Part shown: positions 18,645 to 64,000 of the stretch, piece after piece | Layout of the letters: every line of letters starts with the position of its first letter | Numbering within the stretch: position 1 is the first letter of the stretch | Assembly (NCBI GenBank): GCA_049643905.1 | Contig: JBARQW010000100.1 | Span: 7,115-71,114 of the forward strand | Direction: 5' to 3' | Source of the DNA: Candidatus Bipolaricaulia bacterium | GTDB taxonomy: Bacteria; Bipolaricaulota; Bipolaricaulia; UBA7950; UBA9294 | Length of the DNA: 64,000 bases | The notes under the pieces: generated by a model | The model's database searches: none | What the model was told of the DNA's origin: nothing | The model's input: the letters and a program-made list of their open reading frames with translations, nothing else | Program-made: the position numbers and the translations under genes

Positions 18645-18716
18645 GCGGGCATAGCTCAGTGGTAGAGCATCAGCTTCCCAAGCTGAGGGTCGCGGGTTCG
18701 AGTCCCGTTGCCCGCT
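18645..18716 (+). tRNA. tRNA-Gly (anticodon CCC)
   Basis: GCGGGCATAGCTCAGTGGTAGAGCA-TCAGC-TTCCCAA-GCTGA-GGGTC-GCGGGTTCGAGTCCCGT-TGCCCGCT. Confidence 0.85.
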
Positions 18717-59378: not shown

Positions 59379-59731
59379 CAGCGCGCGCCCCCAGCGGACT
59401 GACTGCGGACTGGTACGCCAAACGTCATCACCGTACCTAGAACCTTCACTCGAGAGTTCTTGGTTCGGTTATAGCTGGTACTCCAAAGACCCCATCCAAC
59501 GAAGCGAAGAGACTTGCGGGCCTTTCCTCTCCCCAGTTGCGTACGTATCAAGCGGACGGCCCCCTACTGGATGAGCGACGGGTTCGACCGCGGTGTCGCC
59601 AAGAACGAGGACGTCGGGACCTCATCGATGCCTTCCCGGGTTTCGGTACGACCATTTGGATGGGAGGAAGTGACATTCGGGGCGGCTTCCGCTGTCGGAG
59701 GCTCCGAAAGAGTGAGTGTTCGACCGGCCGC

Positions 59732-60244: not shown

Positions 60245-60420
60245 GGCCCCCCCTTGGATGGCAATCAGCTCACTACCGACGATCGACCGAAAACGGCGAT
60301 GGGAAAAGGGAATCGGTTCAATGCCAGAAGGACAGATGTCTGCGTCCCGGATGTTTTGACCCCTGTGGCGACTCTCGGTTAAAGTAAGAGTTCAGGCTGA
60401 AGGCCTCCTAGGGAGTCATT

Positions 60421-62144: not shown

Positions 62145-62612
62145 TTGAGCAAGCTATTGCTGTTCAGCGTCGCAGCGACACTCGTTCTGGGCTTCGGGCT
62201 TGAGTGGGGAGATCAGGAGCAAGCTCAGCCCTACGGTACGCTAGCCGATCAAGGGAGTCCGCAGAGGCTTGAAGCCCCACTGATTGTGTTCTTCGGTAAG
62301 GAGAGCTGTGGAAACTGCCGTCGCATGAGAGAGAGCTTGAGTGGGCTGCTGGCAGAATACCCGACGGCAACAGCCGGGTTCTTCGACATCGAAGATGACG
62401 ACAACCAAGACACCTTTCAGATCCTCCTCGAACACTACGCTCCAGACGGGATTCGCGAGATCTACCCAGTGGTCTTCGTCGGAGAAACCGTGATCGTTGG
62501 GGAAGGGCTCGTCCAGGAGATCGACCTCAGAGTCGCGGTGGAGAACTGCCTCGCCACAGGCTGCTCTTCACCTCTGGACCGCATTGACGCGTCCTACGGG
62601 GGCAGCCAGTAG
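62145..62612 (+). CDS. secreted/membrane-anchored thioredoxin-fold protein (CxxC)
   Basis: Signal/TM 'LLLFSVAATLVLGF', 'LIVFFGKESCGNCRRM' CxxC. TTG start with a GAGGAGGG SD. Confidence 0.6.
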   Translation: MSKLLLFSVAATLVLGFGLEWGDQEQAQPYGTLADQGSPQRLEAPLIVFFGKESCGNCRRMRESLSGLLAEYPTATAGFFDIEDDDNQDTFQILLEHYAPDGIREIYPVVFVGETVIVGEGLVQEIDLRVAVENCLATGCSSPLDRIDASYGGSQ

Positions 62613-62737
62613 GGGGAGCAGACGTTCAATCCCGAGTTTCCGTCGATTAGGGCATGTGGCTGCCTACCGCGTCGATGCAGACAAGACACGCACGCCCTTT
62701 GAACTAACTCCGGAACGGTTTCGCTGGGGCGCGCTCT

Positions 62738-62818
62738 CTGATGTGTGTCCCGCTTCGCGTGGTATGAGTGTCGACCTGTTAGATCCTAGTGTTGGACTGC
62801 AAGACCAGACCGCGCACC
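62738..62818. repeat. direct repeat copy 1 (about 60-80 bp; core GGTATGAGTGTCGACCTGTTAGATCCTAGTGTTGGACTGCAAGACCAGACC)
   Basis: About 85% identical to the copy at 63326-63401. Preceded by a degenerate copy of the 35-bp ATGG..TGCGTCCC..GGG..TTCG module. Confidence 0.75.
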
Positions 62819-63004
62819 CGCGAGCGAAAGGCAGACCCACGCATGTCCCCCACGGCGGAGCCGGTGTCCTTCTGTGCCGGCTGCATCCGACCGAAGCTGC
62901 CTCGAGGGGGTTCCTCACGAACCTCCGCGGGCGCTGCGGCTATACAGCCGATCTTCACCTTCCAGCCCAGCGCCCGCCTTCGTTCATCTTTCCCTGGCCG
63001 GAGC

Positions 63005-63154
63005 CTACTTCTTTGTCAGCTCTTCGCCGCAGCACTTGAAGCCGCCGCAGCGGCAGTCGTCGTCGCTGCAGCTACACTCCGTCTTGACCTCGATCTCGAG
63101 CCCGCAGTAGCTGCATGAATAGATGGCGCCGAGCTTCATTTCCGAGCATTTCAT
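63005..63154 (-). CDS. 49-aa cysteine-rich protein, putative metallothionein-like metal-binding peptide
   Basis: MKCSEMKLGAIYSCSYCGLEIEVKTECSCSDDDCRCGGFKCCGEELTKK: 9 Cys in 49 aa. GGTGA SD 5 nt upstream of the ATG. Confidence 0.45.
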   Translation of the reverse strand: MKCSEMKLGAIYSCSYCGLEIEVKTECSCSDDDCRCGGFKCCGEELTKK

Positions 63155-63274
63155 CGTGATCACCGGGCCCGATTGTACGCGAAACGAGGGCAGTGCTTGG
63201 CGGCAACCAGCCCGCCGACACCTGGTGCCCACCATCGATTGAAGGGACACAAACGTCATTTGCGGCTGCTCCTT

Positions 63275-63401
63275 GAAGAATTATGGTTTGCGTCCCGGGT
63301 TTCGTCCCTTGAGGAATCATGGCATGCGTCCCCGGGGTTCGGCGGTATGAGTGTCGACCTACTAGATCCTAGTGCTGGAATGCAGGACCAAACCCCGCGC
63401 C
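63275..63401. repeat. two tandem 35-bp modules (ATGGtTTGCGTCCCgGGtTTCG) followed by direct repeat copy 2
   Basis: 63275-63310 and 63311-63346 tandem modules, then GGTATGAGTGTCGACCTACTAGATCCTAGTGCTGGAATGCAGGACCAAACC. Confidence 0.7.
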
Positions 63402-63469
63402 TCGTCAAGGAATGCACGCCCGACGGCGGTCCGAACGGAGCTATGTGAATTGCTGCCCGCGCCCACGTA

Positions 63470-63960
63470 GAACAGGTCTTGGGGTCTGGTACCCACTAGT
63501 GTTCTGTCTAGCTCTAGAACTCACCGGTGGCCAACTGCAGCCGAAATCGATGAAGTCCTGTCTGGAAGCTAGGAATTCGTCGATCAACTCATAGCGACGT
63601 GAGTTGTTGATGTGCATCAACAGGATCCATTTCGTCCTCTCCGGGCGCCGGAGAGAACTACTTCAAACACGCCACGGGCTCTTCATCCTGGCATTCGTCT
63701 TGGCAGGAGGTGGTCGTTTAGACTAACTCTAGAAGTGGACCGGCCACTGGGGGCTGGTCACAAGGCTAGGGGGCACGCCATCATGACTTTGCGGTAGTCA
63801 ATCCTTCCGATCCATCATGGTTTCACCTGGTCGATCTGTCAATCGACGCCAAGCTTCGGAAGTTCGTCTCGGCCTAGCATCATAGGTCAATCTAGACGAT
63901 TGTGGGGCTGGTCGGCTACCGGAGGTAATGATCCCGATTCAGGTTCCAGCTCGGGAACAG
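63470..63960. other. non-coding, compositionally anomalous region rich in CTAG and 6-bp restriction-site palindromes
   Basis: KpnI, SpeI, XbaI x3, AgeI, PstI, ClaI, EcoRI, BamHI and HindIII sites within about 420 bp. At least 8 CTAG tetramers, against a handful in the other 62 kb. Nested inverted repeats ATCAACTCA/TGAGTTG and GTTGATG-TG-CATCAAC at about 63578-63625. No ORF with protein-like translation. Confidence 0.6.
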
Positions 63961-64000
63961 TCCACCAGCGGGTGCCAGCGAAGGGCAGCCCCCTTGACCC

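Follow-up and report, generated by a model that had tools for sequence, protein, structure and literature searches.

Direct Repeats Around a Cysteine-Rich, Desulforedoxin-Like Gene in a Candidatus Bipolaricaulia Bacterium

The Question

Near the right-hand end of a 64,000-nucleotide (nt) stretch of DNA from a Candidatus Bipolaricaulia bacterium (contig JBARQW010000100.1; this whole stretch is called the window here), two direct repeats bracket a segment of about 580 nt, and within this segment, on the minus strand, lies a gene for a cysteine-rich protein of only 49 amino acids (aa). Do the repeats and the gene belong together, as would be the case for a mobile cassette that carries a metallothionein-like gene, which is how a reading of the sequence alone had presented the locus, or do they have separate histories? 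The answer to which we lend moderate confidence is that the gene is of the desulforedoxin (Dx) kind, that it belongs to a minus-strand unit relocated into a gene-poor spacer, and that the repeats are private products of local duplication or rearrangement rather than the ends of a recognised mobile element. The arguments for this answer come from the gene, from the element that follows it, from the place in which both are found, and from the repeats themselves.

A Gene of 49 Codons

The gene, which encodes MKCSEMKLGAIYSCSYCGLEIEVKTECSCSDDDCRCGGFKCCGEELTKK, extends from an ATG at 63154 to a stop codon at 63005-63007 (63005-63154, minus strand, stop codon included). Nine of the 49 residues of its product are cysteines (18%), and none is a histidine. 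A Shine-Dalgarno (SD) sequence, GGTGA, stands 5 nt before the ATG (63160-63164, minus strand), and GGGTGA is found at the equivalent position in three related loci (L007, L011, and L024). Seventeen nt upstream of the ATG, a probable -10 box, TACAAT (63172-63177, minus strand), can be read from the sequence; either TAGAAT or TACAAT occupies the equivalent position in L007, L009, L011, L024, and L025, and we infer that this box is the promoter element of the Dx-like gene.

The gene is real, and it is conserved in five close homologues with 73-82% identity to the 49-mer; the GC content at its third codon positions (GC3) is 0.86. In the sequence-only reading, the minus-strand frame, the spacing of its cysteines, the lack of histidine, and the GGTGA sequence had all been described as they are, and a plus-strand frame at 62764-63039 had been put forward as the competitor that might prove to be the true gene. 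This competitor overlies a conserved element of the minus strand (see below) and does not have the coding GC pattern of the genome; because the conserved element occupies its span, it is not a gene.

The start of the gene also needs correction. All five homologues are conserved from the MKC onward, and the N-terminal extensions with which they have been called are unrelated. Since conservation begins only at this point, the public gene call (P0001, 84 aa), which starts at 63259, is an over-extension, 35 codons too early, and the gene actually begins with the ATG at 63154; P0003 and P0005 are over-extended in a similar manner. An exhaustive profile search at E < 1e-3 collected 109 clusters in the family, almost all of them with members of 45-80 aa. 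In their sources, the homologues go under the names "hypothetical protein [Candidatus Bipolaricaulota bacterium]" or "Desulfoferrodoxin, N-terminal domain". There is no second Dx-like paralogue in the window.

Kinship with Desulforedoxin

When searched by itself, the 49-mer matches no Pfam model at E <= 1 and, in NCBIfam, neither a desulforedoxin nor a MymT model at E <= 10. The kinship becomes visible at the level of the family: 22 of its 29 aligned members match PF06397 (Desulfoferrod_N), with a best E of 3.3e-6, and eight match TIGR00319 (desulf_FeS4) weakly, with a best value of 1.6e-3. An inserted loop probably breaks the match of the 49-mer to the curated Dx models. The first match of the family profile in the PDB is desulforedoxin (1DXG/1CFW, E = 2.5e-4), which is aligned from end to end with a single insertion of eight residues.

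The predicted structure points in the same direction. From the family alignment, AlphaFold2 produced a model with a mean predicted local distance difference test score (pLDDT) of 89.9, and Foldseek ranks 1DXG first among the structures similar to this model (probability 1.00, target-normalised template modelling (TM) score 0.84, root-mean-square deviation 1.8 Å), followed by the Dx domains of the superoxide reductases 2JI1, 1DFX, and 1VZG, with probabilities in the range 0.91-1.00. By its profile and its predicted fold, the 49-mer is a desulforedoxin-fold protein.

The cysteines can then be compared one by one. C14, C17, C41, and C42 of the 49-mer align to C9, C12, C28, and C29 of Dx and are conserved in 113, 113, 106, and 104, respectively, of 114 family sequences; judged from the alignment and the model, they are the counterparts of the four iron ligands of Dx. 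The other cysteines are conserved to different degrees in the same set: C27 in 111 sequences, C29 in 93, C3 in 70, C34 in 51, and C36 in 56. On this comparison, the gene is of the desulforedoxin kind with an extra conserved cysteine loop that is not seen in Dx itself. We infer that C3, C27, C29, and a loop cysteine (C34 or C36) could provide a second metal site of the Cys4 type. Were these extra conserved cysteines to form such a site, the protein would be a new form, with two centres, of the smallest iron-sulfur protein scaffold known.

A Dx-type domain forms a homodimer, each monomer of which has a single Fe in a distorted tetrahedral site. From its sequence and its model, the 49-mer is most likely a small metal-binding or redox protein, acting through an Fe centre as in Dx or as a thiolate buffer of metals as in MymT. 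Some members of the family (P0039 and P0044) end in a C-terminal GCCCC(G/S) tail, which adds cysteines beyond the Dx core and fits metal buffering in part of the family.

A Metallothionein of the MymT Kind?

MymT holds several Cu(I) ions in a thiolate cluster and is induced by copper. It was to this protein that the 49-mer had been likened on the strength of its cysteines, and the comparison was made here with a sequence of M. tuberculosis MymT that we take to be a valid comparator, given its score of 99.6 bits against the NCBIfam model NF052418 (MymT), for which the curated cut-off is 80 bits. Neither the 49-mer nor P0004 nor P0005 matches this model at E <= 10, and the 49-mer is, on these sequence searches, not MymT by membership. 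Weak similarity is, nevertheless, seen in several comparisons with the family. Five of the 29 aligned family members match NF052418 weakly (best E = 2.5e-3), hhalign gives the family and MymT a probability of 26% (E = 7e-4) over 26 columns, and the family hidden Markov model (HMM) aligns MymT collinearly from end to end, with the C..CG, C.C, and C(x)CG.EL positions matching. This last alignment scores 10-12 bits with a strong compositional bias, whereas desulforedoxin reaches 24-26 bits, which is 14 bits above MymT. In terms of sequence, the family is nearer to Dx and has a motif order in common with MymT.

Could the protein nonetheless be a true metallothionein of the MymT kind, that is, a thiolate-cluster buffer for Cu(I) or Zn and not an iron protein of the Dx type? 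Such an identity would fit the cysteine content of 18%, the similarities just described, and the fact that the extra C27 and C29 are conserved as well as the Dx ligands are; it does not fit the failure of the 49-mer to match NF052418, the higher score of Dx, the predicted Dx-like fold, or the adjacent CC-G pair, which is typical of Dx and stands where MymT has C-x-C-G. Nor do copper or zinc homeostasis genes adjoin any of the homologues inspected. We consider this identity conceivable but doubtful. A metallothionein-like function of the 49-mer, in the broader sense, is possible. What survives of the proposed resemblance to MymT is a weak similarity with collinear motifs; the match to NF052418 is lacking, and the profile and the fold are those of desulforedoxin. 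Of the papers that were searched, none mentions both MymT and desulforedoxin.

A bolder proposal would join these threads. The proteins of about 50 aa with the pattern C-x10-C-x2-CG-x8-C-x-C-...-CCG would be an uncharacterised and widespread family of two-site metal-thiolate proteins that forms an evolutionary link between Dx and MymT; within a single clade, which is probably a relative of Bipolaricaulota, the gene would move as a module made of promoter, gene, and a novel structured 3' RNA, and the 75-nt repeats would mark an insertion that is independent of an integrase. Taken as a whole, this proposal is improbable in our estimation. If the second site in it were true, it would hint at the origin of MymT, which is an orphan among the metallothioneins.

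A Conserved Element Downstream of the Gene

An element that is present in five lineages starts directly downstream of the stop codon of the Dx-like gene. Its core (62896-62979, minus strand), which was delimited with a covariance model and an alignment, has two hairpins with invariant loops: the first is an 11-bp GC hairpin with an invariant loop of 24 nt, and the second has 8 bp. Weaker conservation extends to about 62836, which brings the total to around 85-145 nt. Over 89 nt, the element is 87% identical to its counterparts in four other lineages (the L007 group, L011/L012, L013, and L024), in which the proteins are 71-82% identical; it is found at 62836-62979 (minus strand) of the window, 10178-10330 of L007, 804-886 of L011, 304-455 of L013, and 2627-2790 of L024. 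The covariance model (R1) has one match in the window (62896-62979, minus strand, 84 bits) and scores 105-114 bits in L007, L011, L013, and L024; with this model, the element is absent from the loci of more distant homologues. Covariation support is absent (covariation term +2.9) because the stems hardly vary.

The element contains an open reading frame (ORF) that begins with GTG (MKIGCC...). Its frame is kept in three lineages and frameshifted in L013, and five of its eight variable sites are at third codon positions (p about 0.09). We call the element non-coding, and there may be a GTG micro-ORF inside it. Neither the element nor the direct repeats match Rfam; within the window, the gathering score is attained by tRNAs alone, and between 62000 and 64000, nothing is matched at E <= 10 except isrG, by chance (10 bits, E = 6.1). 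The element is, from its sequence, a candidate for a new RNA motif of 3' untranslated regions (3'UTRs) tied to the gene of a micro-protein.

Two Genuine Repeats

The existence of two direct repeats of about 60-80 bp and about 85% identity was borne out. Copy A (about 75 nt) lies at 62744-62818 and copy B (about 77 nt) at 63325-63401, neither being assigned to a strand, and they are 86% identical. The repeat search gave an ungapped pair of 58 nt with the same identity (62761-62818 and 63344-63401, at a spacing of 583 nt), which gapped alignment lengthens to the limits given above with a Smith-Waterman z of 29.7 relative to shuffles. A pattern made from the 31-nt core occurs exactly twice in the 64 kb, as compared with 0 expected, and 29 of the 31 nt are conserved between the copies. 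Both repeats are genuine and far above chance. Their 14% divergence is scattered over the whole repeat, so that no identical core is left over. Copy A ends 18-78 nt past the conserved 3' element, and copy B lies upstream of the start codon at a distance of about 170-250 nt, with the -10 box of the gene between the two. A search with an nhmmer profile of both copies covered the window and the loci fetched from relatives and found no further copy.

A shorter module adjoins the repeats. Before copy B, and running into it, there is a tandem duplication (63271-63341, no strand assigned) of a 36-nt module, CCTTGARGAATYATGGNNTGCGTCCC..GGGTTCG, which was detected by Tandem Repeats Finder (TRF; 1.9 copies, 82% matches) and by the repeat search and has a Smith-Waterman z of 4. 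Before copy A, alignment reveals, weakly, a single degenerate copy, ATGTGTGTCCCGCTTCGCG (62741-62760, no strand assigned), with a match to the motif TGYGTCCC at 62744. One or two modules had been seen before each repeat; this is right, but the one on the side of copy A is weak and degenerate. A fourth copy, ATG..TGCGTCCCGG, which contains a related motif, TGCGTCCC, at 60341, is located at 60335-60360, about 70 nt upstream of the start of a PAS-GGDEF gene (60421), and directly precedes a -35-like hexamer, TTGACC. From its sequence, it may be a regulatory motif shared with the modules beside the repeats. The TGYGTCCC motif is not enriched in the window as a whole (7 found, 5.35 expected).

Before any meaning is attached to the repeats, it has to be asked whether they arise from the collapse or the chimeric joining of sequences during assembly. 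In several contigs of this species, the sequence breaks off near copy B, at 63471 or 63502; apart from this proximity, nothing was found in support of an artefact, and an A/G strain polymorphism at 63472, in combination with a k-mer length of 31, accounts for these ends. In other samples, four contigs that were assembled separately (L001, L002, L003, and L006) have both copies in the same arrangement, with 99.7-99.9% identity. The species is present in ERZ23498717, SRR28062505, SRR28062509, SRR28062511, SRR28062872, SRR29492072, and SRR7066494. Because four independent assemblies hold both copies in the same order, assembly collapse is excluded, and we give an artefact of any such kind a negligible probability. 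Another idea, that the contig ends at 63471/63502 form a structural boundary or an inverted repeat together with position 59441, was rejected: the polymorphism explains the first, and there is no significant similarity between the positions. Five contigs begin at exactly 59441, which is presumably another variant site.

The Place of the Unit in the Genome

The region from 62613 to 63890 is a gene-poor spacer of about 1.3 kb, in which the 150-nt Dx-like gene is the sole convincing coding sequence. CTAG is enriched here, with 11 of the 48 sites in the window, as compared with 0.6 per kb elsewhere. The surrounding DNA had been held to be lower in GC than the chromosome; it is so only slightly, the last two kilobases having values of 0.605 and 0.574 versus about 0.61 for the window.

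The block that is homologous to other lineages runs from about 62836 to 63185 and falls exactly between the repeats. In the closest relatives (L007, L008, L009, and L010), the Dx-like gene has an Iso_dh gene on one side and a convergent Inhibitor_I42 gene on the other, and other homologues come after an FGGY kinase gene or adjoin a His_Phos gene. Of the Inhibitor_I42 and Iso_dh genes beside the unit in L007, no remnant was found here, the repeats are absent from the loci of the homologous units in other lineages, and no copper, zinc, or cadmium resistance genes recur beside the homologues inspected.

A comparison with a relative that does not have the unit is informative. The convergent gene to the left of the spacer (62145-62612, plus strand), which concerns us only as context, encodes a thioredoxin/glutaredoxin-like protein of 155 aa with a CGNC motif, a hydrophobic N-terminus, and sub-threshold matches to the Glrx-like, Glutaredoxin, and Thioredoxin families of Pfam. 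In L037/L038, a CapK/PaaK-like gene comes 100 nt after a 70%-identical orthologue of this gene, and the Dx unit is missing. The spacer of L037 (673-724) has its best match in the window at 63707-63760 (TAGACTAACT..GTGGAC.G), with a z of 3.5 and with 4 of 500 shuffles doing as well. Since this downstream spacer aligns there, the sequence suggests that 62613-63706 (about 1.1 kb) is extra DNA in this lineage.

Three observations may be recorded alongside. The 155-aa thioredoxin-like neighbour is very rare, with two other clusters among 5.8 billion proteins. A pair of genes for a PNPOx-like and a MarR protein occurs 1-4 kb from the Dx-like gene in two diverged lineages (L007, 14023-14942; L040, 1206-2161) and may be either remnant synteny or a functional link. 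Four tRNA genes are located at 1512-2231 and 18645-18716 of the window; of these, three form a minus-strand cluster not far from its start.

What the Repeats Are

One candidate is a site-specific system, in which the repeats are att- or attC-like sites and the 580-nt segment is an integrase-dependent cassette that brought in the Dx-like gene by an insertion of the Campbell or integron type. Such a cassette would explain why the unit conserved in other lineages is exactly what the repeats enclose, why the context of this unit differs between lineages, and why the region is apparently extra relative to L037; a size of 583 nt with repeats of about 75 nt would also be usual for an integron cassette. 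However, the machinery and the sites were not found: there is neither an integrase or transposase nor any further attC site in the 64-kb window, nor is there an integrase in L001-L006. GTTRRRY sequences occur in copy A only (GTTAGAT and GTTGGAC), are mutated in copy B, and have no partner RYYYAAC at the proper distance, so that no pair of RYYYAAC...GTTRRRY boxes is common to both copies. The paired R''/R' boxes and the folded bottom strand by which attC sites are recognised are thus both missing, the folding of the single-stranded DNA (ssDNA) being no better than that of shuffles (z from -1.1 to +1.2).

The distribution of the repeats is likewise at odds with a site-specific system. Homologous units elsewhere do not have them, a scan for the exact repeat pattern returned no match in the species genomes of GTDB and none in the metagenomes of JGI, and the divergence between the copies runs throughout, without the identical core of a recombination site. 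The single match in IMG/VR, in an AT-rich phage with flanks that show no similarity, was dismissed as chance. Terminal inverted repeats were not found at the ends of the repeats or of the segment, which, with only two copies in the window, is not the picture of an insertion sequence or a miniature inverted-repeat transposable element. An integrase-dependent origin is, in view of all this, unlikely. The idea of a mobile or recently acquired metal-resistance cassette, in support of which other genomes might have been expected to hold the repeat around a different cargo, has found no support: no such genome came to light, and the homologues elsewhere have neither such repeats nor consistent metal-resistance neighbours.

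Another mechanism could be based on regulation, with the repeats as duplicated cis-regulatory DNA, such as operators or promoter-proximal sites for one regulator, which would co-regulate the Dx unit, perhaps through looping, and control the genes to the right of copy B. The 29/31-nt core does contain a partial dyad (ACTAG-ATC-CTAGT in copy B), which is degraded in copy A (TTAG/CTAG), and the related TGCGTCCC motif lies upstream of the PAS-GGDEF gene, although the count of TGYGTCCC given above argues against a wider role. A scan for sigma-70 promoters and for terminators found none in either copy. Moreover, the Dx-like gene has its own conserved -10 box 150 nt from copy B, and copy A is downstream of the unit. 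We judge this explanation to be about as unlikely as an integrase-dependent one.

The repeats might instead mark the beginnings of two small plus-strand genes (MSVDLLDPSVGLQDQT... and MSVDLLDPSAGMQDQT...), for example for paralogous precursor peptides, or be two paralogous small RNAs (sRNAs). From an ATG (at 62764 and 63347, respectively), both copies are open in the same frame, and four of the eight substitutions are synonymous; the eight are, however, distributed 3/2/3 over the codon positions, the GC1>GC2<GC3 pattern that real genes show in this DNA is missing from the ORFs that cross the repeats, no properly spaced SD sequence precedes them, and gene callers are silent there in seven contigs. 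ORF A, in addition, crosses the conserved 3' element of the minus strand. For an RNA, there is a CUNNUAG/CUAGUG hairpin in which two substitutions keep the pairing (G-U to A-U and U-G to C-G, plus strand). The folds of RNA and ssDNA, for both copies and both strands, are no better than those of shuffles and inconsistent between copies (z between -2.5 and +1.2), the closing stems predicted for copy A and for copy B are formed by columns that do not correspond, and the lack of an Rfam match and of a terminator has already been mentioned. Genes or sRNAs that begin in the repeats are, on balance, very improbable.

The repeats and the 36-nt module before copy B are non-coding, unstructured, and private to the lineage, and they probably have no dedicated function. 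Two larger duplications were considered as their source and rejected, the first being a tandem duplication of the whole 585-nt unit (the cargo and the tail at 63402-64000 are not similar), and the second a wider duplication that takes in the regions before A and before B (the similarity is not significant).

A Probable Relocation into a Spacer with Local Duplications

To return to the Dx unit, its history may be pictured as follows. A self-contained transcription unit of the minus strand, which would consist of the -10 box, a short leader with the GGTGA SD sequence, the 49-codon gene, and the 3' element, would have been relocated into the 1.3-kb gene-poor spacer; the spacer would also have been the site of local duplications or rearrangements, which would have yielded the repeats of about 75 nt and the 36-nt tandem. 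That local duplication has taken place in the spacer is directly attested by the 36-nt tandem found there by TRF.

Several points weigh against this reading. The 49-mer itself is below every threshold of Pfam and NCBIfam. The insertion is deduced from one alignment, a weak one (p about 0.01), and in the relative concerned, the upstream synteny is broken as well. Integration, too, would place the repeats where they are, immediately outside the conserved unit, and with two copies in one species, they could still act as an operator, an sRNA, or a recombination site. Finally, the window stops at 64000, and an integrase or more copies of the repeat could lie to the right. Our confidence in a relocated unit with private repeats is moderate. 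In this reading, the repeats add little by themselves and look like a private scar of rearrangement, and the description of the locus as a mobile metal-resistance cassette is unsupported.

Comparison with Known Systems

The arrangement of the locus recalls the gene cassettes of integrons and of clusters of attC sites lacking integron-integrases (CALIN arrays), in which a cargo of about 0.5 kb is flanked by direct repeats with a length of 60-130 nt and a similarity of 80-90%. Here, however, there are two sites only, without R''/R' boxes common to both, without an ssDNA hairpin signal, and without an integrase in sight, and the cargo, which appears to have a promoter of its own, faces away from the usual orientation. 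The 3' element has its closest parallel in the structured RNAs and sRNAs that are borne by 3'UTRs, being a conserved, indel-tolerant hairpin element with invariant loops straight after a stop codon; it differs from them in that it neither belongs to an Rfam family nor has the support of covariation.

As for the protein, it is similar to MymT, the copper-binding metallothionein of pathogenic mycobacteria, in being about 50 aa long, rich in cysteine, and predicted to be rich in beta structure, and in its collinear motifs, C..(..)CG-x-x-[IV]-x-[IV]...C-x-C...C(x)CG-x-E-L. It differs from MymT in having no histidine, in having an adjacent CC where MymT has C-T-C, in not being actinobacterial (its closest named relatives are from Candidatus Bipolaricaulota), and in having no visible context of a copper regulon. 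From desulforedoxin, it is set apart by an insertion of eight residues with C27, C29, C34, and C36 and by an N-terminal extension with C3, which together make five additional cysteines, two of which (C27 and C29) are conserved family-wide; its Fe site is a predicted one. Yet it is with the Dx of Desulfovibrio gigas (PDB 1DXG) and with the N-terminal FeS4 domain of desulfoferrodoxin, the 2Fe superoxide reductase (PF06397 and TIGR00319), that it shares the signature G-x-x-Y-x-C-x-x-C-G ... C-C-G-x-x-M/L, all four ligand cysteines, a profile alignment over the full length, and nearly its size (36 aa in Dx, 49 aa here).

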